NCBI GenBank assembly: GCA_963715985.1
Contig: CAVQSP010000011.1
Coordinates: 64,001-128,000, forward strand
DNA: 64,000 nt
Direction of reading: 5' to 3'
Source: an uncultured Thermoleophilia bacterium
GTDB taxonomy: Bacteria > Actinomycetota > Thermoleophilia > UBA2241
This document shows positions 7,023 to 36,333 of this stretch, piece after piece. Numbering within the stretch: the stretch's first letter is position 1; each line of letters begins with the position of its first letter. A program made the translations under genes and the position numbers. Under the pieces are notes generated by a model. It worked only from the letters and a program-made list of their open reading frames with translations. It made no database searches and had not been told where the DNA came from.

Positions 7023-9452
<2,430 letters not shown>

Positions 9453-9522
9453 GGATACCTGACCTGTGGTCCGCGAATTGGAGGGGTGAGCTTTGGAGGG
9501 TGGCGGGCCGGCCCCGGAGGGG

Positions 9523-9930
9523 TCAGACCCGCCGACGGCGGTGACCGAGGTGGACGATCTCCCCGTGGTGCACCGGCACGAGATCGAGACGGTGCGAGCG
9601 CTCGATGCGCTCGACCTCGCGGCGCATGGCGAGGGCCGCCTCGTCGAGGCGGGCGTGCAGGAGCCGCAGCTCGGCGGCCATGGCGTCCATCTGCTCTTCC
9701 ATGGCCAGCACGCGCTCGACGCCGGCCAGGTTGAGGCCGAGCTCGGTGAGCGCCTGGATGCGGCGCAGCCGATCGACGTCGCGCTGCGAGTACCGGCGCG
9801 TGTTCTTGGCCGTGCGCTGCGGCCGCAGCAGGCCGCGCCGCTCGTACATGCGCAGCGTCTGCGGGTGCATGCCGGCGAGCTCGGCGGCCACCGAGATCAT
9901 GAACAGGGCTCTCTCGTCGTCAGTGAGCAC
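9523..9930 (-). CDS. hspR: Heat-shock repressor HspR (MerR family)
   Basis: [24 protein letters not shown]...RRYS...GLNLAGV; directly downstream of dnaJ. Confidence 0.95.
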
Positions 9931-9939
9931 GGCTCACCC

Positions 9940-11065
9940 TCAACTGAGCACCGTCGCGCGCGGGTCCGGCAGCGTGGCGCCCAGCTTCTCGAAGAGCTGC
10001 TTCTGTTCTTTGGTGAGCTTCTCCGGCACCTGCACGTGGAGCTTGACGTGCAGGTCGCCCTGCCCGCCCTTGAGCTTGGGGGCGCCCTTGCCGCGCAGGC
10101 GCATCGTGCGCCCGTCCTGGCTGCCCGCGGGGACTTTGAGAGACACGTGCCCGCCGCCCGGCGTGGGGATGCGGATGCTCGTGCCCAGCGCGGCCTCGCT
10201 GATGGTCACCGGTACTTCGATCAAGATGGTGTCGCCGCGGCGCTCGAACAGGTCGTCGGGCTCCACGTGCACGCGCACGAACAGGTCGCCGGCCGGTCCG
10301 CCGCGCATGCCGGCCTCGCCCTTGCCTTTGATGCGGATCTTGCTGCCGTCCTTGACGCCGGCGGGGATCTTGACCGCGTAGCGCTTGGTGGCGTGCTGCA
10401 CGCCGGTGCCGCCGCAGGCCGGGCAGCCCTCCTCGATGATGGTGCCGTTGCCGTGGCAGCGCGGGCAGGTCTGCGGCATCGCGAAATCCGCCGAGGTTGC
10501 GCGACACCGAGCCGCGGCCCTGGCACTCGGGGCACACCTTGGGCGAGGTGCCCGGTTTTGCGCCCGTGCCGTGGCAGGTGGCGCAGGTGTCCGGCTTGTC
10601 GACGGGCACGCGCACGGTGACGCCGTGCAGCGAGTCGTCGAACGACACGGTGACGTCCACCTGGAGGTCGTCCCCGCGCTCCGCCCTGCGGCGGCCGCGG
10701 CCGCCGCCGGCGGCGCCGCCGAAGAGGTTGCCGAGGATGTCGCCGAGGTCGCCCATGTCGAACTGCACGTTGCCCTGACCGTACATGCTCGGGTCGAACC
10801 CCCGGTAGCCGCCGGCGCCGGGCCGGAAGCCGCCGGCGCCCGGGCCGAAGGCCCCCAGCCGGCTCAGCTCGTCGTACTGCTTGCGCTTGTCCGCGTCGGA
10901 GAGCGTCTCGTACGCCTCGCTGACCTCCTTGAACTTCTCCTCCGCGGCCTTGTCGCCGGGGTGCCTGTCCGGATGGTAGTCGCGGGCGAGCTTGCGGAAG
11001 GCCTTCTTGATCTCGTCCTGGGAGGCGTTCTTGGGAACGCCCAGCGTCTGGTAGAAGTCGCCCAT
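9940..11065 (-). CDS. dnaJ: Chaperone DnaJ (one apparent frameshift near 10484)
   Basis: J-domain with HPD, G/F region and four CxxCxGxG repeats split over two frames; removing one T in GGATTTCGCG restores [12 protein letters not shown]. Confidence 0.93.
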
Positions 11066-11066
11066 C

Positions 11067-11648
11067 TCAGCTCGACACGATGACCTTGGCCGGACGCAGC
11101 AGCCTGCCGTGGAGCAGGTAGCCGCGCTCCAGGACCTGGAGGACAGTGCCCTCCTCGTGCTCCTCCGAGGCCTGCGTCATGACGGCCTCGTGGATGGTGG
11201 GGTCGAAGAGCGCGCCGGGCTCGACCGGGACCTCCTGCAGGCCGTGGCCCTCGAGGGTGGCCCGCAGCTGGCCCGCCACGAGCTCGAGGCCTGCGATGAG
11301 CTGGCCCTCCTCGTGCCGGGCGCCGGCGTCCAGGGCGCGGCCCATGTTGTCCATGACCGGCAGCAAGGACTCCACGACGGCTTCGGCGGCACGCAGGCGC
11401 AGCTGCTCCGCGTCGCGCTGCGTGCGCTTGCGGTAGTTGTCGAACTCCGCCTGCAGGCGGCGCAGGTGGTCGAGGTACGAGTCGCAATCCGCGGCGAGCC
11501 TGGCGAGCTCCTCGTTGGCGGCGACCGCGTCCTCGGCCGCCGGGGCGGCCTCCTCGACCTCGACCTGCTCGGCCTTCTCCAGCGGGATCGTCTTCGCGCG
11601 CTCGCTCCTGCGCTTGCCGTCGTCTTTGGGGTGCTTCCTGTCCGTCAT
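11067..11648 (-). CDS. grpE: Nucleotide exchange factor GrpE
   Basis: [44 protein letters not shown]; ATG 11648 with AGGA RBS. Confidence 0.95.
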
Positions 11649-23360: not shown

Positions 23361-24749
23361 ATGCCGCCGCGCCCCGGAGACACCCTCGACCTCGACATCA
23401 CCACGCTCGCCTACGGCGGGCAGGGTGTGGCGCGCGTGGACGAGTTCGTCGTGTTCGTGCGCGGCGCCGTACCGGGCGACCGTGTGCGGGCCCGCGTGAC
23501 GCGCCGCAAGAAGAGCTACGCGGAGGCGCGGATGCTCGAGCTTCTCACCCCTTCGCCGCGCCGCGTGGCCCCCGTGTGTGGCCACACCGCGGACTGCGGC
23601 GGGTGCGAGTGGCAGACGCTGGCCTACGAGGCACAGCTGGAGTTCAAGCAGCAGCAGGTGGTGGAGTCGCTCACGCGCCTCGGGCACCTGGACGGCTACG
23701 AGCTCGAGCCCATCCGCGGCATGGCGGAGCCCTGGCGCTACCGCAACAAGATGGAGTTCTCGTTCGGCGAGGACGACGACGGCCGCCTGCTGCTGGGCCT
23801 GCACCGTCGCGGCTCGTGGCGCGAGATCGTGGAGACCACCGACTGCCTCCTCGCCTCGGAGCGCATGAACCGGGCGCGGCAGGCGGTCGCCGACGAGTGC
23901 CGCGCCCTCGGCCTCAAGGTGTTCGGGCGCGAAGGCCACGAGGGTCTCCTCCGCCACCTCGTGGTCCGCGAGAGCCTCTCCACAGGCGACCTGCTGCTCA
24001 ACCTCTTCGTGGCGGCGCGGTTCCCGGAGGAGGCGGCGCTGGCGGAGCGCGTCGCCGCCGCCTGCGGCTGCACGTCGTTCGCCGTCACCGTGAACGACAC
24101 GCCGGCGGATGCCGCCGTGGGCGACGGCCCACACATGCTGCTGGGGCCGCCGTTCATCCGCGAGCGCCTCGCCGGCGTCGACCTGCACGTGCCGGCGACG
24201 GCCTTTCTGCAGACCAACAGCGCCATGTGCGATGAGCTCTACACCGTCGCGCTGCGCTTCGCCGAGCCCGACCCCGCCAGACCGGCGGTCGACCTCTACT
24301 GCGGCATCGGTTCGCTCAGCCTGCCGCTGGCGCGTCGCGCCGCCTCGGTCCAGGCCGTGGAGATCCAGCAGGAGGCCGTGGTGGCCGCCCGGGAGAACGC
24401 CGCGCTCAACGCCATCCGCAACGTCGAGTTCCACGCTCGCGACGTGAGGCCCCTGCTCAAGTCCCCTCCCCACGCCACCCTGGACGCCGCGCGCGCCAAC
24501 GACCTCGCGCGGCCCGCGGTGGTGCTGGTCGACCCGCCTCGCGCAGGCCTGGCGCGCAAGGCCCTGCAACGTGCCGCGGCGCTGGGCGCGGACCGCTTCG
24601 TCTACGTGTCCTGCAACCCCACCACGCTGGCCGGCAACGGGGCGGAGCTCGCCGAGCTCGGATACCGGCTCACGCGCGTGGCGCCGGTGGACATGTTCCC
24701 GCAGACGCACCACATCGAGACGGTGGCGCTCTTCGTGCGTGAGAGCTGA
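23361..24749 (+). CDS. rlmD: 23S rRNA (uracil-1939-C5)-methyltransferase RlmD
   Basis: TRAM domain, CGGC Fe-S motif, YRNKMEF, FLQTN, DLYCGIG, VDPPRAG, YVSCNPTT, DMFPQTHHIE. Confidence 0.95.
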   Translation: MPPRPGDTLDLDITTLAYGGQGVARVDEFVVFVRGAVPGDRVRARVTRRKKSYAEARMLELLTPSPRRVAPVCGHTADCGGCEWQTLAYEAQLEFKQQQVVESLTRLGHLDGYELEPIRGMAEPWRYRNKMEFSFGEDDDGRLLLGLHRRGSWREIVETTDCLLASERMNRARQAVADECRALGLKVFGREGHEGLLRHLVVRESLSTGDLLLNLFVAARFPEEAALAERVAAACGCTSFAVTVNDTPADAAVGDGPHMLLGPPFIRERLAGVDLHVPATAFLQTNSAMCDELYTVALRFAEPDPARPAVDLYCGIGSLSLPLARRAASVQAVEIQQEAVVAARENAALNAIRNVEFHARDVRPLLKSPPHATLDAARANDLARPAVVLVDPPRAGLARKALQRAAALGADRFVYVSCNPTTLAGNGAELAELGYRLTRVAPVDMFPQTHHIETVALFVRES

Positions 24750-24769
24750 GGGGCCCCTTCAGGCGTGAC

Positions 24770-25528
24770 TCAGGCGGCCGCCCGCGGCGCGCGCAGCTTG
24801 GCGAGCAGCAGATCGGCGTTCACGGCCAGGAAGGCCACGGAGAGCAGCGGCAGCGCCGGCAGCGCCGTCCACCACATGGCGGCGGCGATGGTGCCCAGGA
24901 ACGAGGCGATCATGGCCACCGCACTCCACCCCGTACGCAGGCCGAAGCGCTGCGCCGTGCCCAGGTACAGGGCGAAGAAGATGACGTCACTGATGCCGAG
25001 CCCGGTGAACGCGTCGCGGTAGGAGTACCCCGCCCAGCTCACGGCGACGGTGAAGTAGCCGACCACCACCGGGCCGTGACCCAGAAGCGCCTTGGTCGGC
25101 CCCGCTGCGACGCTCACGACGTCCACGACGGCGGACACGACAGCCACCACCACGATCCAGCTGAGGCGCTCGAGCTCGTCGGCGATCCAGATGCCGAGCG
25201 CCGCCGCCGCGACCACCTTGGCCACGTTGGCGAACGGCACCCACCCCAGCCATACGCAGAGCACCGCGACGGGCAGCGCGACAACGGCCAGCAGCGGCAG
25301 GCGTCGTCCGAGCCGCCGCAGGGGCAGCATCCCCCACACGAGCACGCCCATCAGGGCGAGCACGATGAGAGACGACAGCATGATGTCCACGCGCACCGGC
25401 GGGGACGGCAGAACGTATGAGAACGACGTCCAGAGGATGAGCGCAGCGGCGGCCACGAACGCCGGCATGAGAGCCGCAGCGAGGGGCGCGCGGCCCGTCT
25501 GGGGCCCATCGGGCGGCGGGCCGCTCAC
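24770..25528 (-). CDS. Polytopic membrane protein with presenilin/SPP (peptidase A22)-like motifs
   Basis: About 8 hydrophobic segments; SAVVDVVSVAAGPTKALL, GLGISDVIFF and TALPALPLL in presenilin order. Start (GTG 25528 or ATG 25469 region) uncertain. Confidence 0.65.
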   Translation of the reverse strand: MSGPPPDGPQTGRAPLAAALMPAFVAAAALILWTSFSYVLPSPPVRVDIMLSSLIVLALMGVLVWGMLPLRRLGRRLPLLAVVALPVAVLCVWLGWVPFANVAKVVAAAALGIWIADELERLSWIVVVAVVSAVVDVVSVAAGPTKALLGHGPVVVGYFTVAVSWAGYSYRDAFTGLGISDVIFFALYLGTAQRFGLRTGWSAVAMIASFLGTIAAAMWWTALPALPLLSVAFLAVNADLLLAKLRAPRAAA

Positions 25529-25541
25529 GGAAGTGCCGGGC

Positions 25542-26141
25542 TCAGTACGGCGGGATGTTGTCGTACCAATCGCCGAGCCGCCGGAAGGCACGCCAGAAGG
25601 CGGCCTTGAGACGCTGCTCGTCGAGCGACGCATCGATGTCCGGCGTGACGAGCACCTCCGTGCCCGGCGTGAGCTCCACGATCTCGCCGGGCTTGTACTC
25701 CACGGTGCGCGCGAGCGGCACTTCAGCGGCGTTGAGGGCCGCCACCGTCTCCTCCCCCATCGCGACGATGAGCTTGGGACTGACGATGGCGAGCTCGCGA
25801 CGCAGGTGGTCGAGGCACTTGGCCTCGGGCTTTCCGCGCACCTCGCCGCACTTCACGACGTTCGTGCCGTAGAGCTGCAGGGGGTCGATCTTGAGACGCT
25901 GGCAGCTCTTCATGAGCGCGGTGCCGGAGCGCCCGAAGAAGGCGACGCCCTCGTGCAGCTCGGACGGGCGCGCCTGGTACTTGAGCATGAAGATGTCCGC
26001 CATGGGGTGGCCGGACCCGATGACCGGCATGGTGCGCGCGTGACTGCAGCGGGAGCACCTCAGGATCTCGCCGGTGAGCTCGTTGATCTCCGAGATGGCT
26101 CTGGTCAGGTACTTGTCGTAGATCTCGTTGGGTTGCGCCAC
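25542..26141 (-). CDS. Uracil-DNA glycosylase superfamily protein (family 4-like)
   Basis: CSRC, VIGSG, FFGRSG, TNVVKC, CLDHLRRELAIVSPKLIVAMG; catalytic motifs look diverged. Confidence 0.8.
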   Translation of the reverse strand: MAQPNEIYDKYLTRAISEINELTGEILRCSRCSHARTMPVIGSGHPMADIFMLKYQARPSELHEGVAFFGRSGTALMKSCQRLKIDPLQLYGTNVVKCGEVRGKPEAKCLDHLRRELAIVSPKLIVAMGEETVAALNAAEVPLARTVEYKPGEIVELTPGTEVLVTPDIDASLDEQRLKAAFWRAFRRLGDWYDNIPPY

Positions 26142-26242
26142 GCGATTCCTCGATTCGGCGTGTCCGCTTGCTAGTTCGCGCCGTGCTCGTGAAGTCCTCG
26201 GATTCCGGCAGCAACTGCCGGGGGTCCTGGATTATACGCGCG

Positions 26243-28138
26243 TTATGCAGGGGAATCATCCTGCCCGGTGCTGCGTCCGGGCCCACTCATGGTGGTCTGG
26301 ATGAACTTGAGCGATTGCAGGTAGATGAGGCTGCGAGGGCGGCGCACGATGCGGCTCTCGGCGAGGGCCGCGACGAAGTCGCCCGGCCCGGTGAAGTCGT
26401 CGATGCCGCACATGGCGGTGCCGATGCCCGGCAGCACGTGCGAGTCGCTGCCGGCGGCGGCCGGGATGCGGTACCGCTGCGCGAACTGCTCGGCGAGCTC
26501 GTTGAAGCCGGGGAACGCGAGCCGCGAGTTGAAGACCTCCATCACGTCGAGGTCGGCCACGTTGGCGCGCAGCACGGGCGGCGCCGGGATGGTGTGCAGG
26601 CGGTCGAACGGGTGCGGCACGTAGACGACGCCGCCTTGCTCGCGGATGGCGGCGATGGTGTCCGCGAACGTCATCCCCCCGGGGATGGTGCGCTCGAGGA
26701 ACAGGCCGATGACCTCGCCCTCGCTGGACTTGACCTCCTCCCCCACGATCACGCGCACGCCGTAGCGGTCGGCGATCTCGCGCGCCTCCAGCCCGCCGGC
26801 GGCACTATCGTGGTCCGTGATGGCGATCACGTCGAGGCCCACCTCGCGGGCACGCTCGAGGATGTCGGCCACCGGCATGGCACAGTCCTTGCTGTGGTGC
26901 GAGTGCACGTGGAAGTCGGCGAACAGCTCGCGCTGCTGCCGGCGGCGCCGCGGCAGCGGCTGGCGGCGGCGGCGAGCCACCTCCTCGTACACGTCTTCAG
27001 TCTCGGCAGCCACGCGGTCCCAGTCGTAGCGGCGCACGGTGCGTGACGCCTCGTCGGCGAGCCGGCCGCGAAGTCCCGGCTCGTCGAGCAGGCGCCGCAC
27101 GGCCGCGGCCAGCTGCTTCGGCTGCCGCGGCGTGACGAGCAGGCCGTTCACCTGGTGGCGCACGACCTCGTCGTAGCCGGGCAGCCGGGAGGCCACCACG
27201 GTGGCTCCTCCGGCCATCGCCTCCAGCAGGGACACGGCCGCCGTCTCCGGGCCCAGCGAGGGCGCGCAGAAGGCGTCCGCGCGCCCGTACAGCTCGGGCA
27301 TGTCCGCGTCCGGCACGCGCCCGAGAAAGGCGACGCGGCCCGCGAACGCCGGGGGCACCAGCCGCGCGTACCGGCGCTCCTGACGGTCGGCGCCGCACAC
27401 GTCCAGCGTGAGCTCGGCCGCGCGGTCGTCCAGGTAGCGCAGCGAGCGCAACAGCACCCCGAGGCCTTTGCGGCGTGACTCGACGCCGGCGAACAGCAGG
27501 CGCAGAGGGCCGGGCTCCCTGCCGTCGCCGGCCCCGAACCGCTGCAGGTCGATGCCCGGCGGGATGACCCTGTACGCGCCCGGGAAGGTGACCGCCGCCG
27601 CGTCGCGCGTGGCCACCGAGGAGGCGATCGCGGCGTCCAGCGAGTCGAAGAGGCGACGCAGCTTGGGCCGCGTGGCGAGGAACGGCGCCGTCCGCTCCGG
27701 GTTGGCGTGGAAGGTGGCCACCAACGGGCAGCCGGCGTGGCGCAGCGCGGTCCAGCCCAGGCCGGGCACGAACGGCTCGTGCAGGTGCAGCAGGTCCAGG
27801 TCCTCGGCCTCGAGCAGGACGTCGATGTTGGCGATGAGGTCGGCAGGCGCCGCGATCAGCTTCAGCGAACGGCTCTCCCGCACCGCATACGTGGCGCCGG
27901 CGAAGAAGTAACGCGGGTACGGCTCGTCGGGCAGGAAGACCGTGTCGCGCTCACCGGTGAGCACCGCCTGGACGCGCCGGCGGGCCTCACTCACCGCCTG
28001 GCCGTCGGAGCTCGGCGCGATGACGGTGACGCGGTGGCCGCGCGCAGTGAGCCGCTCCACGAGGGACTCCACCTGGCGATTGACGCCCGAGGGTGTGGTC
28101 CACAGGAACGGCGTGAGGATGCCTATCTTGTGCGTCAT
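26243..28138 (-). CDS. PimA-like GT4 glycosyltransferase fused to a C-terminal PHP phosphoesterase
   Basis: HLHEP, PLVATFH, RRKG, E-x7-E (ETAAVSLLE) as in PimA; then DFHVHS, TDHD, GEEV, PHP, EVFN, GSDSH. ATG 28138 lies 7 nt after TACCAT. Confidence 0.88.
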   Translation of the reverse strand: MTHKIGILTPFLWTTPSGVNRQVESLVERLTARGHRVTVIAPSSDGQAVSEARRRVQAVLTGERDTVFLPDEPYPRYFFAGATYAVRESRSLKLIAAPADLIANIDVLLEAEDLDLLHLHEPFVPGLGWTALRHAGCPLVATFHANPERTAPFLATRPKLRRLFDSLDAAIASSVATRDAAAVTFPGAYRVIPPGIDLQRFGAGDGREPGPLRLLFAGVESRRKGLGVLLRSLRYLDDRAAELTLDVCGADRQERRYARLVPPAFAGRVAFLGRVPDADMPELYGRADAFCAPSLGPETAAVSLLEAMAGGATVVASRLPGYDEVVRHQVNGLLVTPRQPKQLAAAVRRLLDEPGLRGRLADEASRTVRRYDWDRVAAETEDVYEEVARRRRQPLPRRRRQQRELFADFHVHSHHSKDCAMPVADILERAREVGLDVIAITDHDSAAGGLEAREIADRYGVRVIVGEEVKSSEGEVIGLFLERTIPGGMTFADTIAAIREQGGVVYVPHPFDRLHTIPAPPVLRANVADLDVMEVFNSRLAFPGFNELAEQFAQRYRIPAAAGSDSHVLPGIGTAMCGIDDFTGPGDFVAALAESRIVRRPRSLIYLQSLKFIQTTMSGPGRSTGQDDSPA

Positions 28139-28176
28139 GGCGTTCATGGTACAGCACGCCGCCTGCCGCGAACGCG

Positions 28177-28216
28177 CGAGGGGGCGGTCAGGGCGACTGC
28201 CCTGACCGCCCCCTCG
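28177..28216 (-). terminator. Hairpin downstream of ino1
   Basis: CGAGGGGGCGGTCAGGGC-GACT-GCCCTGACCGCCCCCTCG, 18-bp perfect stem. Confidence 0.7.
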
Positions 28217-28264
28217 GGACAGCCCTGGTGCTGCGCGGCCGGCGCGCCGGCCGCGGGCGCGCCG

Positions 28265-29368
28265 CTACCCCTGGCAGACGGCGGTGGCGCCCTTGCCCTC
28301 GCCGGCGATGAACTCCTCGGTCATGCGCCGGCACTGGTCGTCGGGGTGCTGCACCGGCGGCGACTTCATGAAGTAGCTGCTGGGCGCCTCGAGCGAGCCG
28401 GCCAGACCGCGATCAAGGCCGATCTTGGCGCAGCGCACGGCGTCGATGACGATGCCGGCGCTGTTGGGCGAGTCCACGACCTCGAGCTTGAGCTCGATGT
28501 TGAGCGGCACGTCGCCGAAGGTACGACCCTCCATGCGGATGTAGGCCCACTTGCGGTCGTCCAGCCACTCCACGTAGTCGCTGGGCCCGATGTGCACGTT
28601 CTTGGCGCCCATGTCGTAGTCCAGCTGGCTGGTGACGGCATTGGTCTTGCTGACCTTCTTGCTCTCCAGACGCTCGCGCTCGAGCATGTTGAGGAAGTCG
28701 GTGTTACCGCCGACGTTGAGCTGGCTTGTGCGCTCGAGCTTCACACCGCGCTCGCGCATGAGCCGCGTGAGCACGCGGTGCACGATAGTGGCGCCCACCT
28801 GGCTCTTGATGTCGTCGCCGATGATGGGCACGCCGGCCTCGACGAAGCGCTTCTGCCAGTACGGCTCACGGGCGATGAACACGGGGATGCAGTTCACCAT
28901 GGCGCAGCCGGCGGTGAGGATCTGCTCGGTGTACCACTTGGTGGCCTCTTCGCTGCCCACGGGCAGGTAGTTGACCACCACGTCCGCCTGCGTCTCCTTG
29001 AGGATGCCGACGATGTCGGCGGTGGCGCCGGGCGCCTTCTCGATGATCTGCGAGAGGTACTTGCCGAGCCCGTCGTGGGTCATGCCGCGCACCACCTTGA
29101 CGTCCTTCTTCGGTACCTCGGCGAACTTGACGGTGTTGTTGGGCTTGGTGAAGACGGCCTCGCTGAGGTCCTTGCCGACCTTGTTCTTGTCGATGTCGAT
29201 GGCCGCCACGAACTCGATGTCGCGGATGTGGTAGCCGCCGACCACAGGGTGCATGAGGCCGGGCACGAAGTCGGTCTTCTTCGCGTTCTTGTAGAACTCC
29301 ACGCCCTGCACGAGGGACGATGCGCAGTTGCCCACGCCGATGATGGCGACGCGTACCGGGTTACCCAA
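28265..29368 (-). CDS. ino1: Inositol-3-phosphate synthase
   Basis: [48 protein letters not shown]. Confidence 0.97.
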
Positions 29369-29490
29369 GTTAGGTCTACCTCCACTGGCTGCGGCCGCTG
29401 TCGCGGCCGCAAGGTCAAAGCCGACTGCGGGCGCGCGAACGCTCCCGCCGGGCTCACAATGACGCGCGGCAGTATATCACGCGTGAGTGT

Positions 29491-30117
29491 TCAGGGGCGC
29501 CCGGCGTCCACGCGCCGGAGCTTGCGCATGACGTGCAGCATGCGCTGCAGCACGGTGAGCGAGGTGAGCGCGGCGAGCAGCCAGATGAACCAGACGAGGA
29601 CGCTCGTGCCTCCCAGGTCCCACCCCGAGAGCACGAAGCCGATGCCCAGACCCACGAGACGCTCCGGGCGCGACATGAAGCCCACCTTGCAGTCCACGCC
29701 CAGCGCCTCCGCACGCGCCCTCGTGTAGGAGACCATCTGCGAGGCGCCGAGGAACAGCAGAGCCCCACCCGCGGTCCACCACTGGTCCTGGCCGGCGAAG
29801 TAGATCGTCAGTGCGCCGGCCACCAGCAGCTCGGAGATGCGGTCCGTGGTCGAGTCGAGAAAGGCGCCGGCCTTTGTGGGACCTGCGCCGGCACGCGCCA
29901 CGGCGCCGTCGAGCGCGTCGCAGATGCCCGCGAGGACACCCAGAGGGACGGCCCAGACGAAGTGGCCGGTGAGCACGAGCGGCACGACGCCGGCCTGCAA
30001 CAGCAGGCCGAAGTACGTGAGCATGTCGGCGGTGACGCCGCGCTGTGCGAGCACGACGCCCACCTTGAAGAAGCCGCGGCGCGCGCCGTCGGTGTAGCGG
30101 GTCTTGAGGTTTGCCAC
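29491..30117 (-). CDS. pgsA: CDP-alcohol phosphatidyltransferase (phosphatidylinositol-phosphate synthase-like)
   Basis: DALDGAVAR...GAFLDSTTDR signature, SYTRARAE, RPER; adjacent to ino1. Confidence 0.88.
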   Translation of the reverse strand: MANLKTRYTDGARRGFFKVGVVLAQRGVTADMLTYFGLLLQAGVVPLVLTGHFVWAVPLGVLAGICDALDGAVARAGAGPTKAGAFLDSTTDRISELLVAGALTIYFAGQDQWWTAGGALLFLGASQMVSYTRARAEALGVDCKVGFMSRPERLVGLGIGFVLSGWDLGGTSVLVWFIWLLAALTSLTVLQRMLHVMRKLRRVDAGRP

Positions 30118-30118
30118 G

Positions 30119-30913
30119 TCAGCCGTCGCGCTCGCGCACGCGGACCGTCTGGAGCTCGCGAGTCTCGCCGGGCTGGAGGCTGACGGCCAGCGCCCAGGCA
30201 GCGGCCACCACGAGGACGCTGCCGAAGGCGTCCACGATGAAGTGGTTGCCGGTGGCGACGATGACCACCAGCACGAGGGCCGGGTACAGAAAGCCACCCC
30301 AGCGCAGCCAGCGCTGCCGCGCCAGCATGAAGACGACGAGTGCGATGAACAGCGCGTAGGCGAAGTGGAGGCTGGGCATGGCCGCGAACGGGTTGGCGAG
30401 CAGACCGTTCTCCAGAATGGCCGGGCGCTTGCCGTGCATGTAGCTCATGTCGACGATGCCGGCGGTGAAGATCATGCGTGGCGGCGCCGTGGGCAGGAGG
30501 AAGTACAGCAGCACGGCCATGAAGTTGATGCCGAGGAACCAGTTGCGGATGAGCTTCCACTGGCTGCGGCGCTGCGTGAACACCCAGACCATGGCGCCCA
30601 TGATCAGCGGAAGATGCAGGGCGCCGTACGCCCACACCATGAACCCCATGGCGCCGGGTATGGAGCTGACGTGGCTCTGCACCCACGGCTCCACGTAGAT
30701 GTGCATGGCCTTCTCGAGGTTGAGGAAGAAGAGGCCGTTGGCCATCGCCGTCGCCTCGCGCCCCACGACGACCGCCCGGGACACGTCGTAGACGGCGTAC
30801 AGGGCGAGCATGATGAGGCCCTGGCGGAGCACGTCTTCGCCGCCGGAGCGGGCGAACGAGAAGCGGGCGTCGTCGAGAAGACGCCCGACAGCGGGCTTCA
30901 TGCGGCCGTTCAC
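30119..30913 (-). CDS. PAP2_3 / Aur1-Ipt1-like lipid phosphotransferase or phosphatase
   Basis: PTAPPR, NPFAAMPSLH, TGNHFIVD motifs in a polytopic membrane protein. Confidence 0.85.
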   Translation of the reverse strand: MNGRMKPAVGRLLDDARFSFARSGGEDVLRQGLIMLALYAVYDVSRAVVVGREATAMANGLFFLNLEKAMHIYVEPWVQSHVSSIPGAMGFMVWAYGALHLPLIMGAMVWVFTQRRSQWKLIRNWFLGINFMAVLLYFLLPTAPPRMIFTAGIVDMSYMHGKRPAILENGLLANPFAAMPSLHFAYALFIALVVFMLARQRWLRWGGFLYPALVLVVIVATGNHFIVDAFGSVLVVAAAWALAVSLQPGETRELQTVRVRERDG

Positions 30914-31029
30914 GGTGCCGGTACTCCCGTCAGGTGAAGTGCATCATCGCGGCCCATCCCACGTACGATAGCAGAGCGATGGAGGGACGAGCAAATGGAT
31001 GGACGGCCGGAACGGCCGGCGAGGAGTGC

Positions 31030-31105
31030 TGGTGGGCCGTGAAGGATTCGAACCTTCGACCTTGGGATTAAGAGTCCCCTGCTCTACCAACTAAGCTAAC
31101 GGCCC
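31030..31105 (-). tRNA. tRNA-Lys (anticodon CTT)
   Basis: GGGCCGTTAGCTTAGTTGGTAGAGC...CT-CTT-AA...GGTTCGAATCC...CGGCCCACCA; 76 nt with encoded CCA. Confidence 0.98.
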
Positions 31106-31122
31106 ACTCGTCGCGAGGCGAT

Positions 31123-31151
31123 ATGCTACCAGCCGTCCGGGCCCTTGCCAA
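31123..31151 (-). promoter_or_regulatory. Sigma-70-type promoter for tRNA-Lys
   Basis: TTGGCA-17 nt-TAGCAT with TG extension. Confidence 0.6.
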
Positions 31152-31157
31152 ACCGGC

Positions 31158-31400
31158 TCAGTCTGCGCCGAAGACGTGGCGGCCGGCGACCGCGTACCCC
31201 TCTTCTTCGACGGCCGCTTCGATGGTCTCGAGCGTGACGGTGGCGGTCTCGAAGTCCACGGTGACGCTCTTGGCCTCGATGTCGACGCTCACCGCGTCCA
31301 CGCCGCCGATGGCTTTGACAGCGCCCTCGATGGCCATCTTGCAGTGATTGCAGGAGACGCTCGGCACGTTGAGCACCGCGTGCGTGGCTGCCATGGTCAT
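31158..31400 (-). CDS. copZ: Copper chaperone CopZ (HMA domain)
   Basis: VSCNHCKMAIE...AVEEEGY. Confidence 0.88.
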   Translation of the reverse strand: MTMAATHAVLNVPSVSCNHCKMAIEGAVKAIGGVDAVSVDIEAKSVTVDFETATVTLETIEAAVEEEGYAVAGRHVFGAD

Positions 31401-32209
31401 GCCTCCTCTGGGTCGGGCTTGCCGAGCTCCGCCAGCCGGTACGTAGCGGACCTGCCTTCGCCGTGATCGACGGTGACGCTGTCGACCGGCGCGAGGAGCT
31501 CAGTGACCTTGCCTTCCCCGCCGGGCGTGGAGATCATCGCGCCGCGCTTGGGGGCGCGCTTGCGGAACGAGAGATATACCTGGTGCTCGTACTTGAGACA
31601 GCACATGAGCCGCCCGCAGCACCCCGAGATCTTGGTGGGGTTCAGCGGGAGGTTCTGGTCTTTGGCCATGCGGATGGACACCGGCTCCTGATCGCCGGCG
31701 AAGGTGGCGCAGCAGAGGCTGCGGCCGCACGGTCCGAAGCCGCCTACGATGCGCGACTCGTCGCGGGCACTCACCTGCTTGAGCTCCACGCGGCGGCGCA
31801 GACGCTCGTTGAGGCGGCCGACGAGCTCGCGGAAGTCCACGCGCTCTTCGGCGAAGAAGGTGATGGTGAGCTTGCCGCCCTCGAAGGCCTGGCGGGCGTC
31901 GACGACCTTCATGTCCAGACCGAGCTCGTCGACGAGCTCGCGGCACACGCGCTTGGCGTCGAGCTCCTCCGCGCGGTGCCCGGCCATGCCGTCCAGGTCG
32001 GCCTGGGTGGCCTTGCGCATGAGGCGCTTGAGGCCGCGTGGCGCCTGCTCGATGGGCACGTCGTCCGGGCCCTTGACGAGGCGCCCGAGGTCGGCGCCCC
32101 GTGTGGTCTCGACGATCACGCGATCGCCGACGGAGACCTCGAGGTCTGCGGCCTCGAACTGGTAGACCTTGCCGCCGCCGCGGAACACGACACTGGCGAT
32201 CCTAGGCAC
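31397..32209 (-). CDS. ricT: PSP1-domain protein RicT/YaaT
   Basis: RVDFRELV, GPCGRSLCC, VSIRMAKDQNL, KISGCCGRLMCCLKYE; GTG 32209 overlaps the holB stop region. Confidence 0.92.
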   Translation of the reverse strand: MPRIASVVFRGGGKVYQFEAADLEVSVGDRVIVETTRGADLGRLVKGPDDVPIEQAPRGLKRLMRKATQADLDGMAGHRAEELDAKRVCRELVDELGLDMKVVDARQAFEGGKLTITFFAEERVDFRELVGRLNERLRRRVELKQVSARDESRIVGGFGPCGRSLCCATFAGDQEPVSIRMAKDQNLPLNPTKISGCCGRLMCCLKYEHQVYLSFRKRAPKRGAMISTPGGEGKVTELLAPVDSVTVDHGEGRSATYRLAELGKPDPEEA

Positions 32210-33335
32210 TTGCTGCGACCTCCTCGAAGCGCGCGAACATGGCTTGCAGTGCGAGCTTCTGGTCGATGTTGAGATACAGGTCTTTGCGCGTCCGGGCGAT
32301 GACGGCGAGCAGCCGTGCGTAGTGCTCCGGAGCAGCGACGGCCGCTTCGACCAGTTTGTCGGTACGGTCGCAGTTCCAGAGTACATCGGATGCCCCGCAG
32401 GCGACCACCCAGAGGTCGCGGACCCAGGCGGCCAGGAGATCGACGGCGTCCTGGGCGGCCACGCGGCGAAGTCGCGTGGCCTCGCGCTTGGCGCGCGCCT
32501 CGGCACGGTCCCGGTGCCACTTGAGGTCGCGCTTGTCCGAGAACTGCAGCTCGAGCTCGGACAGCTTGGCGGCGAGCTGCTCCTGCACGCGCTCATCGAC
32601 CTTCTTGACCTCGCGGTCGAGCACCTCGATGAAGGCGGAGGGGGGATCCGGCGTCTTGCCGCCGCGCTTCAGGGCGACCGCGTCGGCCGCGTACTTGAGG
32701 TAGTCCTCCCGCAGGCCCGCGCCGCGCGCGTCCTCCGCCAGACGCGCGGCGCGCTCCACGGCGCCTCCGGAGAGCCGCGCGATGGTCTGCGCCTGGACGT
32801 CCTGCAGGTCGTACTGCCGGCGCAGGTACTCCTCCACCTCCACGTCGCTGAGCGGGTGACACTCGACCAGCTGGCAGCGCGAGACGATGGTCGGCAGCAC
32901 GCGCTCCAGACGGTCGGTGACGAGCAGGAAGACCACGTAGGCCGGCGGCTCCTCGATGCTCTTGAGCAGCTCGTTGGCGGCCGCCGGGTGCAGGTGCTCG
33001 ACCTCGGGGATGACCCAGACCCGGCGCGGCGCGGCGAACGGCCGCAGGCTCAGGTCGGCGAGCACCGGCTTGACCTGCTCCTCGCGGATCACGTCGCCCT
33101 CCCTCTCGATGACGTGCAGGTCGGGGTGCACGCCGCGGCGCGCGCGCTCGCACTCCGCGCACACGCCGCAGCCGCCGCACGACGTGACGAGCGCGACGCC
33201 CAGCTCCCGCGCGAAGACCGTCTTGGCCAGCCCCTCGCGGCCGGCGAACAGATAGGCGTGGCTGAGCGAGTCGTCGCGCAGGGCTCGCGCGAAGAGCTCC
33301 TTGACCTGCCGCTGGCCCGGCACCGATTCGAACAC
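32202..33335 (-). CDS. holB: DNA polymerase III delta' subunit
   Basis: HAYLF, CGVCAEC, HPDLH, ANELLKSIEEPP, LPTIVSRCQ. Confidence 0.93.
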   Translation of the reverse strand: MFESVPGQRQVKELFARALRDDSLSHAYLFAGREGLAKTVFARELGVALVTSCGGCGVCAECERARRGVHPDLHVIEREGDVIREEQVKPVLADLSLRPFAAPRRVWVIPEVEHLHPAAANELLKSIEEPPAYVVFLLVTDRLERVLPTIVSRCQLVECHPLSDVEVEEYLRRQYDLQDVQAQTIARLSGGAVERAARLAEDARGAGLREDYLKYAADAVALKRGGKTPDPPSAFIEVLDREVKKVDERVQEQLAAKLSELELQFSDKRDLKWHRDRAEARAKREATRLRRVAAQDAVDLLAAWVRDLWVVACGASDVLWNCDRTDKLVEAAVAAPEHYARLLAVIARTRKDLYLNIDQKLALQAMFARFEEVAASA

Positions 33336-33341
33336 GGCCCG

Positions 33342-34007
33342 TCAGCTCCCCAGACGAAGGCCGGCGGCGCCCACAGCCTCGAGCGCCGCCGCCTCGACCT
33401 CTGCGGCCACGAGGTCCACGTCACGGAAGCCGTCGATGAGGCGCACCCGATCGGGATACAGCCGGGCCACCACCGCGAAGCCGGCCGCGACACGCTGCTG
33501 GAAGTCGAGACCCTCGGCTTCGATGCGGTCGGGGGCGCCGCCGGTACGGGCGAGCCCGACGAGCGGGTCCACGTCGAGGACGAGTGTGAGATCGGGGATG
33601 AGCCCGCGCAGGCCCGGCTCGTTGACGGCGAGCACGGCGTCCACGCCCAGCCCACGTGCGAAGCCCTGGTAGGCCAGGGAGGAGTCGACGAACCGGTCGA
33701 GCACGAGCACGCGGCCGGCGCGCAGGGCGGGCAGGAGCACGCGCTCGACGAGCTCGGCGCGGGCGGCCGCATAGAGCAGCGTCTCGGTCCACGGCGCGAG
33801 CTCGGCCGGGCCGTGCAGGAGTAGGGTGCGCACGGCCTCTCCGGCCGCCGTGCCGCCGGGCTCGCGGACCACCGTTCCCGGCGCATCCACGGGACCCACG
33901 GGAAGCCCGCAGGCGGCGAGGCGCTCGCAGAGCAGCGCCGCCTGCGTACTCTTGCCGCAGCCGTCGCAGCCCTCGAGCGTGATGAGCACCCCGGGCAGTT
34001 CGCTCAC
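33342..34007 (-). CDS. tmk: Thymidylate kinase
   Basis: ITLEGCDGCGKST, REPGG, DRFVDSSLAYQG; GTG 34007 with AAGGAG. Confidence 0.95.
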   Translation of the reverse strand: MSELPGVLITLEGCDGCGKSTQAALLCERLAACGLPVGPVDAPGTVVREPGGTAAGEAVRTLLLHGPAELAPWTETLLYAAARAELVERVLLPALRAGRVLVLDRFVDSSLAYQGFARGLGVDAVLAVNEPGLRGLIPDLTLVLDVDPLVGLARTGGAPDRIEAEGLDFQQRVAAGFAVVARLYPDRVRLIDGFRDVDLVAAEVEAAALEAVGAAGLRLGS

Positions 34008-34059
34008 GACGGTCTCCTTTGAGGCCACCGGGCCGGGCGGCGTCGGCCGCCGGGCGCGG

Positions 34060-36333
34060 TCAGTCCTTGGTGCGCGCCTTGGCCCGCGCGCGATACTCGG
34101 CCTTGCTCGGGCACTCGATATCGATGCAGAGCACCCACGGCCGGCCGCGGCCGCCGGCGCCCACCACCTTGATCTCCGGCCACCCGCAGGCGCCGCAGGT
34201 CTTGCCGGTGGGCGTGATGGTGCCGCGTTGCGGCAGGGGGAAGGTCTGGCCGCAGCCGCGCCGCGGGCGTTCGCCCTCGGCGGCTGGCTTGGGCTCCTCA
34301 CCCTCCTTGCCCACGCAGGCCACGAAGCGCTTGCCCGTCTTGCCGCGCAGCACGCGCAACTGGCCGCCGCACACCTTGCACTCGCCCAGGGTGAGGTCCT
34401 CGCGTACACCACTCTTGATGCGGTCGCGGATGTCGGTGACGTGAGAGTCCAGGAGCTTCCAGGCCTGCTCGAGCATCTGCGTGCTCTCGGCCACCACCTC
34501 GTCGCGGCGCAGCTCGCCTTCGCTGATGCGGTCCATGCGCTGCTCGAGCTCCGAGGTCATCTCGCTGGACGAGATGTCCACCGGCGCCTTCTCCATGGCG
34601 GCGTCGAAGGCGGCGATGAGCGCCACGCCCAGCTCGGTGGGCTCCACGGGGTTGTCGCGCACGTAGTTGCGGTCGTAGAGGTGCTGGATGATGTCGGCGC
34701 GCGTGGCCTTGGTGCCGAGGCCGAGATCCTCCATCTTCTCGATGAGTTTGCCCTGCCCGTAGCGTCCGGGCGGCTGCGTCTCCTTGGCTTCCGAGCGCAG
34801 GTCCAGCACTTTGAGCACGTCGCCGGGCTGCAGGGCAGGAAGCGGCCTGTCGCGCTTGGCCGCGTACTTCTCGTAGACCTCCAGGTAGCCCAGAGAGGCG
34901 ACTCGCGCGCCGTAGGCGAGGAACGGCTCCTCACCGATGCGGATGTCCACCCGCTGGCGCTCGATGACCGCCGCCGGCAACAGCGTGGCCAGGAAGCGGC
35001 GCACGACGAGGTCGTAGACCTTGGCCTGGTCGCCGCTGAGCTCCTTGGCGGGGACGCCGACCGGGTAGATCGGCGGGTGGTCGGTGGTGCGCTTCTTGCC
35101 GCGCGAGGCCGTGAGCTTGTCCTGCCCGTGGAGCCGTGCGGCCGTGGCCGCGACGGGCTGCCAGCGTGAGAGCTCGCTGAGGCTGCCGCGCAGGTCCAGC
35201 GACGGCGGGTACACCGTGTTGTCGGTACGCGGGTAGCTGATGAGACCGTCGAGGTACAGAGACTCGGCGGCGCGCATGGCCCTGGCCGGCGTCATGCCGG
35301 ACCCCGAGGCGGCGCTCATGAGCGCCGTGGTGTTGAACGGCGCCGGCGGCTTGTCGTCCTTGGGCTCGGCCTTGTAGGCCGTGACCTCAGCCGTCTCGAC
35401 CTGGGCACGACCGAGGGCGGTCTCCATGGCCTCTTGCGAGTCGAAGCGTCCCCTGGCGTGCGCCACCTCGAAGGGCTCGCCCTCGTGGTCGAGCGTGGCT
35501 TTGATCTCCCAGTACGGTACCGGCAGAAACGCGCGGCGCTCGAGCTCGCGCTCGACGACGAGGCGCAGCGTGGGCGACTGCACGCGCCCGACCGCGAGGT
35601 ACTCCGAGCCATAGCGGTACGACGCCAGCGACATGAAGCGCGTGAGCACCGCGCCCCAGATGAGGTCGATGTCCTGGCGCGAGTGCGCCGCCTCGGCGAG
35701 GTTGAAGTCCACGGTGGACGGCTTGGCGAACGCGGCCTGGACCTCTTCTTTGGTGAGCGCCGAGTACCGCACGCGCACGTGCCGGTCCACCGCCGCTGCA
35801 GGCAGCATGGGCTTGACGTGCGGGTCGCCGTTGTCCTCGAGGGCGGCCGGAGGCTCGGCCGCGGCCTTGCCGCGGCCGGTGGCGCCGGCCGCCTTCTTCC
35901 TGGGCTTGCCCGGCTTGTCGTCGGGGTGGCGCTTGAGCGCGTCGCCGCGCAGGATCTCGAGCGCTTCGTGGCCGATGAGCTCGCCCTCGCGATCGTAGTC
36001 GGTGGCGATGACCACCTCGCTGGCGCCCTTGGCCACCGTGCGCAGAGCGGCCAGCGTGCCCGCGGCGCCGGCGTCCACGACCCACGCCAGGTCCGGGGCG
36101 TCGATCATCTCGCCGAGGTGCTTGAGGCTCCAGCGGCGGTACCGGTCTGGGAAGACCGTCTCCATGACGTGCCCGCGCAGGCCGATGGCCACGGCGTCGT
36201 CGCCCTCGTAGACGAAGTGGTACGAGCGGACCTTCTGGCGGCCGCGGCCGTGCTCCTTGACCGTGACCTTGGCGCCGAGGATGTCGGCGATCTTGCGAGC
36301 GGCGTCGGCCTTCTCTGTGACGATGAGCTTCAA
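34060..36333 (-). CDS. topA: Type IA DNA topoisomerase (archaeal TopA/TopIII-like)
   Basis: TOPRIM (TEK, ATDYDREGE), GRVQSP, active site GLISYPRTD, C-terminal Cys ribbons. Confidence 0.92.
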   Translation of the reverse strand: MKLIVTEKADAARKIADILGAKVTVKEHGRGRQKVRSYHFVYEGDDAVAIGLRGHVMETVFPDRYRRWSLKHLGEMIDAPDLAWVVDAGAAGTLAALRTVAKGASEVVIATDYDREGELIGHEALEILRGDALKRHPDDKPGKPRKKAAGATGRGKAAAEPPAALEDNGDPHVKPMLPAAAVDRHVRVRYSALTKEEVQAAFAKPSTVDFNLAEAAHSRQDIDLIWGAVLTRFMSLASYRYGSEYLAVGRVQSPTLRLVVERELERRAFLPVPYWEIKATLDHEGEPFEVAHARGRFDSQEAMETALGRAQVETAEVTAYKAEPKDDKPPAPFNTTALMSAASGSGMTPARAMRAAESLYLDGLISYPRTDNTVYPPSLDLRGSLSELSRWQPVAATAARLHGQDKLTASRGKKRTTDHPPIYPVGVPAKELSGDQAKVYDLVVRRFLATLLPAAVIERQRVDIRIGEEPFLAYGARVASLGYLEVYEKYAAKRDRPLPALQPGDVLKVLDLRSEAKETQPPGRYGQGKLIEKMEDLGLGTKATRADIIQHLYDRNYVRDNPVEPTELGVALIAAFDAAMEKAPVDISSSEMTSELEQRMDRISEGELRRDEVVAESTQMLEQAWKLLDSHVTDIRDRIKSGVREDLTLGECKVCGGQLRVLRGKTGKRFVACVGKEGEEPKPAAEGERPRRGCGQTFPLPQRGTITPTGKTCGACGWPEIKVVGAGGRGRPWVLCIDIECPSKAEYRARAKARTKD

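Follow-up and report, generated by a model that had tools for sequence, protein, structure and literature searches.

A PimA-like glycosyltransferase fused to a PHP phosphoesterase in a conserved inositol-lipid operon of Thermoleophilia: a possible phosphatidylinositol phosphate phosphatase

Introduction

Which enzyme converts phosphatidylinositol phosphate (PIP) to phosphatidylinositol (PI) in bacteria that build inositol lipids? This question is raised by a locus in a 64,000-nucleotide stretch of DNA (the window, i.e., the whole stretch that was analysed) from an uncultured Thermoleophilia bacterium (CAVQSP010000011.1), in which a PimA-like glycosyltransferase (GT) of the GT4 family is fused to a PHP phosphoesterase domain. 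The fusion gene lies in one cluster with genes for Ino1, a CDP-alcohol phosphatidyltransferase resembling PIP synthase (hereafter PIPS) and a membrane protein of the PAP2_3 family. An original prediction held that the PHP domain dephosphorylates PIP and passes PI to the fused GT. Described here are the gene content of the locus, the fusion with its intact sites, its conserved linkage and the stronger constraint on its PHP half, from which a possible role of the PHP domain in the PIP-to-PI step is argued.

In the part available of the work of Heaver et al. (2022), this step in Bacteroides thetaiotaomicron is assigned to the PgpA-like protein BT_1525 on genetic and lipidomic evidence (PMC9246714). 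For actinobacteria, the premise of the original prediction, namely that the PIP phosphatase is not firmly identified, agrees with a July 2026 preprint, the accessible sections of which still call the mycobacterial enzyme 'long-sought' (bioRxiv 10.64898/2026.07.15.738315). The same sections propose EphE, an alpha/beta-hydrolase, on the strength of a predicted complex with PimA, and the authors concede that biochemical proof is lacking (10.64898/2026.07.15.738315). Within the Thermoleophilia, PI is given as the main polar lipid of Conexibacter woesei (PMC3035278), and both PI and phosphatidylinositol mannoside (PIM) appear on thin-layer chromatography of Solirubrobacter deserti (PMC10722151), according to the excerpts available of these two reports. 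No paper describing a PHP enzyme with a lipid substrate, or a PHP protein tied to PIP or inositol lipids, was found in a literature search that left subscription journals largely outside.

Gene content and conservation of the operon

The window has a G+C content of approx. 70%, and the relatives of its genes are, by record titles, found in metagenome-assembled genomes of Thermoleophilia, phylum Actinomycetota. The assembly to which it belongs (labelled G000) is 88.8% complete with 7.29% contamination; the completeness bounds every genome-wide absence stated for it below. According to the list of open reading frames (ORFs) and to Pfam and NCBIfam matches, four minus-strand ORFs fill positions 26243-30913 and encode PAP2_3, PIPS, Ino1 and the GT4::PHP protein (Table 1), which is the gene content originally proposed. 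Together they form a genuine inositol-lipid operon that is strongly conserved.

Two of its genes supply the inositol-lipid context. The CDP-alcohol transferase matches PF01066 (CDP-OH_P_transf; 52.7 bits) and carries the signature DxxDGxxAR...GxxxDxxxD from residue 67 of its 208 residues. Its scores against the archaetidylinositol-phosphate synthase model NF040950 (132 bits) and the PIP synthase model NF045883 (123.2 bits) are below the respective cut-offs of 180 and 170; the latter cut-off is reached in only 33 of 401 Actinomycetota genomes. Other CDP-alcohol transferases of G000 score far lower against NF045883 (33.4 and 26 bits), and of the four encoded in the assembly only that of the window is PIPS-like. 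Its likely start is a GTG one base past the PAP2_3 stop. Ino1 is matched by TIGR03450 with an E-value of 1e-166 (554.5 bits, cut-off 638). The original prediction had remarked that the cluster contains no acyltransferase; this extends to the whole assembly, in which no match to the PatA-type family PF03279 was found (88.8% complete).

As predicted, the fusion is a clean single ORF, with 634 codons and no internal stop, and it is evidently no assembly accident. A scan of one genome per species returned 255 relatives, of which 80 loci were kept for analysis. The GT and PHP matches share one frame in 69 of the 75 loci that have both; in the other six (L024, L025, L029, L036, L037 and L056) a frameshift or an assembly error is possible. 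Among the fusion relatives listed, all 120 carry both PF00534 and PF02811, at identities down to 58%. The 80 loci are labelled Thermoleophilia, Gaiellales, Solirubrobacterales or unclassified actinomycetes, with the exception of one short Deltaproteobacteria contig.

A survey of the surroundings of the GT4+PHP architecture, which the original prediction had proposed, found it firmly linked to genes of inositol-lipid synthesis. Counting only loci with enough flanking sequence, all 64 have PIPS upstream of the fusion in the same orientation, and 63 of 65 have Ino1 no more than 2.6 kb upstream (2.7-2.9 kb in the other two). An upstream PAP2_3 gene accompanies the fusion in 53 of 62. On the downstream side, a gene similar to uracil-DNA glycosylases (UDG) is present in 77 of 78 loci, and 73 of 76 encode there a membrane protein that belongs to no known family. 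The linkage with PIPS and Ino1 persists where GT identity to the window protein drops to approx. 30%. The synteny of PSP1, holB and tmk is limited to closer relatives; in distant orders these genes are gone and the core is retained.

The PimA-like GT4 domain

The GT domain is matched by PF13439 (77.9 bits) and PF00534 (95.6 bits) across residues 20-390. By its best solved relative, Mycobacterium smegmatis PimA (4n9w, E 3.8e-38, residues 7-391), it is a member of the PimA family. MshA-type structures form the next-best group (7qsg, E 6.6e-15). Because PimA aligns end to end, whereas MshA aligns with the C-terminal, nucleotide-sugar half only (residues 170-392), the comparison points to a lipid-inositol acceptor. 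The equivalents of PimA residues G16, R201, K202, E274 and E282, which we take to be catalytic and nucleotide-sugar residues, are all present in the window protein (G21, R226, K227, E301 and E309).

This is not so throughout the family. The Lys202 equivalent (K227 in the window protein) is kept in 43 of 68 full-length fusions and lost in the other 25, which include all Gaiellales- and Solirubrobacterales-type sequences. In the fusions of these types at loci L062-L080, the first Glu of the EX7E motif is often gone together with the lysine, and the PHP domain is intact; the GT half of these proteins may be a pseudo-enzyme.

The structural model of the full-length fusion (pLDDT 86.8, pTM 0.83) contains two Rossmann-like halves in the GT portion and appears compatible with a fixed arrangement of the GT and PHP domains. 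Since the protein has no hydrophobic segment (maximum KD19 1.43), it is presumably cytoplasmic, like PimA.

As regards orthology, the fused domain is not the best PimA match of G000. That position is held by a stand-alone paralogue on contig 12 (G000:C12:47552-48799). Of the 61 genomes of the order, 35 (G000 being one of them) have a copy at least 54% identical to the paralogue; 20 have the fused copy alone, and 6 gave no match at E<=1e-35. Contamination of the bin was considered as the source of the paralogue and rejected, given these 35 genomes, among them the single-contig genome G402. The paralogue is part of a second glycolipid-like cluster (L081, G000:C12:39000-57000), in which it lies next to PlsY (PF02660) and another GT4 at approx. 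8550-11600 on the minus strand; the two GT4 proteins may be the PimA/PimB-type pair of the organism.

The PHP domain

The PHP domain exceeds the gathering thresholds of PF02811 (43.1 bits, threshold 26.4) and PF13263 (43.4 bits, threshold 21.3) over residues 411-600. The expectation of a full set of PHP metal ligands is borne out: twelve motif residues (D411, H413, H415, D421, D445, H446, E471, H512, E537, N540, D568 and H570) are present, do not vary in an alignment extended to stand-alone relatives, and are all intact in 65 of 68 full-length fusions. By sequence comparison, PHP is the most constrained part of the fusion, its similarity exceeding that of the GT domain in 65 of 65 loci (medians 81% vs. 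68%). Since PHP is retained where the Lys202 equivalent of the GT is often lost, the lasting selected activity beside PIPS and Ino1 is that of a phosphoesterase and not that of a glycosyltransferase.

An AlphaFold2 model of the domain (pLDDT 90.2) gave 54 Foldseek matches in the PDB at E<=0.001, with PHP enzymes leading. The best is the PHP domain of RNase AM (7ug9, E 1.1e-13), followed by TM0559 and BVU_3505; BAD_1165, PsfC and Cv1693 are also matched. The domain ends in a conserved C-terminal helix (residues 607-620). This helix was considered as an amphipathic membrane anchor and rejected, as its hydrophobic moment is outside the top ten of the protein and hydrophobic residues occur all round it.

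Proposed pathway

Within this context, a pathway can be proposed as follows. Ino1 would make inositol 3-phosphate, which the CDP-alcohol transferase would join with CDP-diacylglycerol to give PIP. The 634-residue protein would act as a cytoplasmic, membrane-peripheral two-domain enzyme, its association with the membrane being presumed. At the surface of the membrane, the PimA-like GT-B half would engage the inositol head group, and the C-terminal PHP domain, with a full metal site, would remove the head-group phosphate of the putative substrate, either PIP or glycosylated PIP, so that PI is released. In the lineage of the window, where the GT residues are intact, the same protein could then add a sugar to the inositol, if the two reactions run in this order. 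In lineages with decayed GT residues, the GT domain would be a substrate-binding or membrane-targeting module for the phosphatase.

The central claim, i.e., that the PHP domain dephosphorylates PIP or glycosylated PIP at the cytoplasmic face of the membrane, guided by a PimA-derived domain that is here able to glycosylate the product, is given a probability of approx. 45%, a little short of even odds. This assignment is favoured because of the linkage with PIPS and Ino1, the constraint on PHP, the PimA-like GT, the cytoplasmic nature of the fusion and the state of two other phosphatase families in the genome. No match to PgpA (PF04608) was found in G000 (88.8% complete), in a search whose control matched 5 of 14 named genomes, and the only gene of the inositol monophosphatase type (PF00459) consists of three pieces in different frames (G000:C13:64030-64742, minus strand), which reflects either a frameshifted gene or an assembly error. 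Further support comes from the presence of PI in Thermoleophilia (and of PIM in one strain), the PimA-bound hydrolase of the preprint and the pTM of 0.83. It is a more tentative proposal, with the doubts outweighing the arguments for it, that the protein would be the first PHP-superfamily enzyme acting on a membrane lipid, with a PimA-derived anchor that is an active GT in some Thermoleophilia and a decayed head-group-binding module in others.

Distribution of the PHP domain and points against the assignment

Several observations weigh against the PIP-phosphatase assignment. The first concerns a family of the same class, termed f2, which keeps PIPS beside the fusion at four loci, with Ino1 also adjacent in two. 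The f2 PHP domains lack the HxH, DH and DxH motifs in 3 of 3 sequences checked, and in the complete f2 genome G131, PIPS is followed by a 397-residue GT-only gene and then by the UDG-like gene, with neither a PHP nor a new phosphatase in the cluster. A PIPS match is present in 7 of 7 sampled f2 genomes. A search of f2 clusters whose PHP is dead or missing (L095, L097 and L102) found no replacement phosphatase, and PAP2_3 was not found in the f2 genomes G184 and G322 with the window protein as query. It follows that either another PIP phosphatase exists in the class or f2 leaves PIP phosphorylated.

The second point is that all linkage evidence comes from one class, and the unrelated UDG-like gene is equally conserved; therefore, part of the linkage is inherited gene order. 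Thirdly, in comparisons with M. smegmatis PimA (2gej), 224.7 bits are obtained for the stand-alone paralogue and 134.8 for the fused domain. The designation of the fused GT as PimA-like stands as far as its best solved relative is concerned, although a much closer PimA match exists in the same genome. Moreover, of the closest solved PHP structures, RNase AM and Cv1693 have RNA or nucleotides as substrates, and the others lack a known function. A rival phosphatase candidate, PAP2_3, opens the operon in translational coupling with PIPS, its stop lying one base before the PIPS start.

The distribution of PHP outside the class also counts against a general role. Among 401 Actinomycetota genomes (these two tallies, and no other claim, draw on unpublished genomes, namely G018 for PHP and 15 genomes for PIPS), PHP was matched at E<=1e-10 in 92. 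Within the class these are G000 and 30 of 31 other genomes, with 24 strong matches and 6 weak ones from f2. Outside it, 38 genomes contain stand-alone proteins of approx. 220-270 residues that are approx. 40% identical (E<=1e-30), and 23 more have weaker matches. No match at this threshold was obtained in the other 309 genomes, mycobacterial-type lineages included, and 285 of the same 401 genomes have a PIPS-like gene. As most PI-making actinobacteria are without this PHP, it is not the general actinobacterial PIP phosphatase, and the original prediction fails in so far as it offered PHP as such.

Nor do the stand-alone proteins lie in an inositol-lipid context: Ino1, PIPS or GT4 was found near them in 0 of 16 loci outside the class. 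The seven annotated loci have TldD/PmbA, purine genes, an NTP transferase, LytR and similar genes nearby, and four genomes (G220, G233, G272 and G319) have a stand-alone PHP and no PIPS match. A profile search of a library of 1.84 billion proteins returned 2049 PHP cluster representatives at E<=1e-30, a few of which have CoaE, a SAM methyltransferase, a dual-specificity phosphatase or an OB fold as fusion partner (P0212, P0249, P0261 and P0255). Given such fusions and the stand-alone contexts, the PHP subfamily as a whole is not specific for inositol lipids. The claim that PHP dephosphorylates PIP and hands PI to the GT is only partly supported.

Two further observations concern the stand-alone proteins. 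The idea that they track PIPS was rejected, because the co-occurrence (32 of 38 genomes) is too close to the base rate (285 of 401) and the genomes are related. PAP2_3 (L082, L085, L090 and L101) or PAP2 (L088) lies within a few kb of the stand-alone PHP in 5 of 16 loci; three of the four PAP2_3-linked loci come from one family, and nothing firm is drawn from them.

Alternative explanations

The alternative that survives best, though it is unlikely, is that PAP2_3 is the PIP phosphatase, in the manner of PgpB for phosphatidylglycerophosphate, with PHP serving the GT otherwise or having no part in the pathway. The PAP2 superfamily, to which PAP2_3 belongs, includes the lipid phosphatase PgpB, and this, like the translational coupling mentioned above, speaks for such a role. 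The protein matches PF14378 (135 bits, E 3.6e-39) and retains the motifs PSxH (PSLH, residue 180) and Hx3D (HFIVD, residue 224); its gene is kept in 53 of 62 loci. Moreover, f2 genomes with a dead PHP often retain PAP2_3 copies (5 of 7). However, PAP2_3 is absent from the cluster in the remaining nine loci and was not found genome-wide, with the window protein as query, in 9 of 32 genomes of the class, and seven of these nine have an intact PHP, including the same-genus genome G355 (98% complete). In addition, PF14378 represents the phosphotransferase (Aur1/SMS-like) branch of the superfamily, and both motifs are predicted by the positive-inside rule to be at the outer face, whereas the reactions of PIPS and PimA-type enzymes take place at the cytoplasmic face. 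In G131, PAP2_3 directly adjoins a PimA-like GT4 in two further places (G131:C1:475857-477656 and 1467885-1469710), which suggests a recurring module of a head-group transferase and a glycosyltransferase, and fits such a module better than several copies of a phosphatase.

According to a second and quite improbable alternative, PHP acts on nucleotides or RNA, as a phosphoesterase similar to TrpH, RNase AM or the pAp phosphatases, and was joined to the GT without any catalytic connection with inositol lipids. The structural matches agree with this, as RNase AM structures lead them (1.1e-13 and 5.6e-12) and Cv1693 is matched in a structure with bound AMP, and so do the CoaE and OB-fold fusions of subfamily members. 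The NCBIfam matches to 3',5'-nucleoside bisphosphate phosphatase (NF041577) and RNase AM/RNM (NF047791) point the same way, but they are weak, at 43.4 bits (cut-off 400) and 39 bits (cut-off 375), respectively. Furthermore, the window domain is shorter (approx. 220 residues vs. 280-290), and both the fusion and its operon position are kept throughout the class, with PHP as the best-conserved part.

Least probable is a soluble glycosyl-inositol route, in which the GT glycosylates inositol 3-phosphate and PHP strips the phosphate (presumably resembling MshA followed by the unidentified MshA2 step, or the synthase-phosphatase fusions of compatible-solute pathways): the fusion gene adjoins ino1, a GT with a phosphatase is the usual logic of such pathways, and MshA is the second-best structural group and gives an NCBIfam match at E 4.3e-18, but that match (TIGR03449) reaches 65.4 bits against a cut-off of 462.5, the structural one is confined to half of the domain where PimA aligns from residue 7, the lipid enzyme PIPS is linked in 64 of 64 loci, and the loss of GT residues in 25 of 68 fusions with PHP intact would be senseless if PHP only cleared the GT product.

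Neighbouring genes

The coordinates of the operon and its surroundings are collected in Table 1. The UDG-like protein scores 52.9 bits against NF040953 (cut-off 250) and falls far below the cut-offs of the family-4 models; its median identity across the loci is 84%, and the usual family-4 active-site motif looks altered by eye. It is a conserved neighbour that may have some role in the pathway. The membrane protein further downstream has no Pfam or NCBIfam match; in the Atlas it is placed in clusters of hypothetical proteins only, apart from a weak indication (score 0.88) of signal peptide peptidase A22B. Upstream, a housekeeping run of PSP1-holB-tmk-topA, named by eye from the translations, occupies 31397-36333 on the minus strand. 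The promoter-like site is the sole sigma-70-like match in 24500-31600 and agrees with the consensus in 9 of 12 positions; shuffled sequences gave a mean of 0.4 matches.

Table 1. Positions of the operon genes, the fusion domains and neighbouring features in the window
Feature	Position	Strand	Remarks
PAP2_3 integral membrane protein, Aur1/IPC-synthase-like PAP2 branch	30119..30913	-	264 aa; first gene of the cluster; PF14378
PIP-synthase-like CDP-alcohol phosphatidyltransferase (PIPS)	29491..30117	-	208 aa from GTG at 30117; ORF extends 29491-30297
Ino1, myo-inositol-3-phosphate synthase	28265..29368	-	367 aa; TIGR03450, PF01658
GT4::PHP fusion ORF	26243..28147	-	634 aa, no internal stop
GT4 (GT-B) PimA-like domain of the fusion	26951..28147	-	residues 1-399
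PHP phosphoesterase domain of the fusion	26243..26950	-	residues 400-634 and stop; PF02811, PF13263
Divergent family-4-like UDG-superfamily protein, downstream neighbour	25542..26141	-	PF03167, 42.2 bits
Multi-pass membrane protein of no known family, downstream neighbour	24770..25528	-	five hydrophobic segments
Promoter-like site 5' of PAP2_3	31123..31151	-	sigma-70-like consensus match only

Implications and comparison with known systems

The operon offers a class-wide candidate for a PIP phosphatase that is restricted to Thermoleophilia. According to the available part of the Bacteroides study, the PIP-to-PI step has been assigned genetically in bacteria only in Bacteroides (PMC9246714). 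If the more tentative proposal of a lipid-acting PHP enzyme is true, bacteria would have arrived at this dephosphorylation on at least three separate occasions, i.e., by a PgpA-like enzyme in Bacteroides, by PHP in Thermoleophilia and by another enzyme in mycobacteria. Its confirmation would add a lipid phosphatase activity to the PHP superfamily, reveal the reuse of a PimA-type domain as a targeting module and explain how the Thermoleophilia, abundant in soil, make their main phospholipid. As PHP was not found in most Actinomycetota, the mycobacterial type included, it would not by itself close the mycobacterial question.

In comparison with known systems, the fused GT domain is closest to PimA (2gej, 4n9w), with which it shares the GT4 GT-B fold, an end-to-end alignment and equivalents of five key residues. 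It differs from PimA in an insertion in the N-terminal domain (approx. residues 48-105), in the C-terminal PHP domain and in the position of its gene, which comes after ino1 and not after pgsA1 and patA. The PHP domain shares a common barrel and the HxH, DH, E, H and DxH ligands with TrpH-type proteins (RNase AM, 7ug9 and 9etk; Cv1693, 2yb1; TM0559, 2anu; BVU_3505, 3e38), to which it is related at Foldseek E-values of 1e-13 to 8e-9, TM-scores (by query length) of 0.57-0.71 and identities of 16-26%. Unlike them, it is shorter, fused to a GT and located in a lipid operon.

The PAP2_3 protein resembles Aur1/IPC synthase, sphingomyelin-synthase-like PAP2_3 proteins and the PI-dihydroceramide synthase of Bacteroides in its PF14378 match (135 bits) and its His/Asp motifs; against the model of the Bacteroides synthase, PhinosDhcerSyn (NF052609), it scores 21.7 bits (cut-off 480). 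Two proteins have been proposed for the same step as the PHP candidate. As far as the available part of the report goes, BT_1525 is clustered with myo-inositol phosphate synthase, PIP synthase and a PAP2-type inositol-lipid enzyme; it has an unrelated fold (PgpA, PF04608), is unfused and has genetic and lipidomic support. EphE, in the accessible sections of the preprint, shares with the fusion the idea of a PIP phosphatase physically attached to a PimA-type enzyme, although it differs in fold and is a protein of its own.

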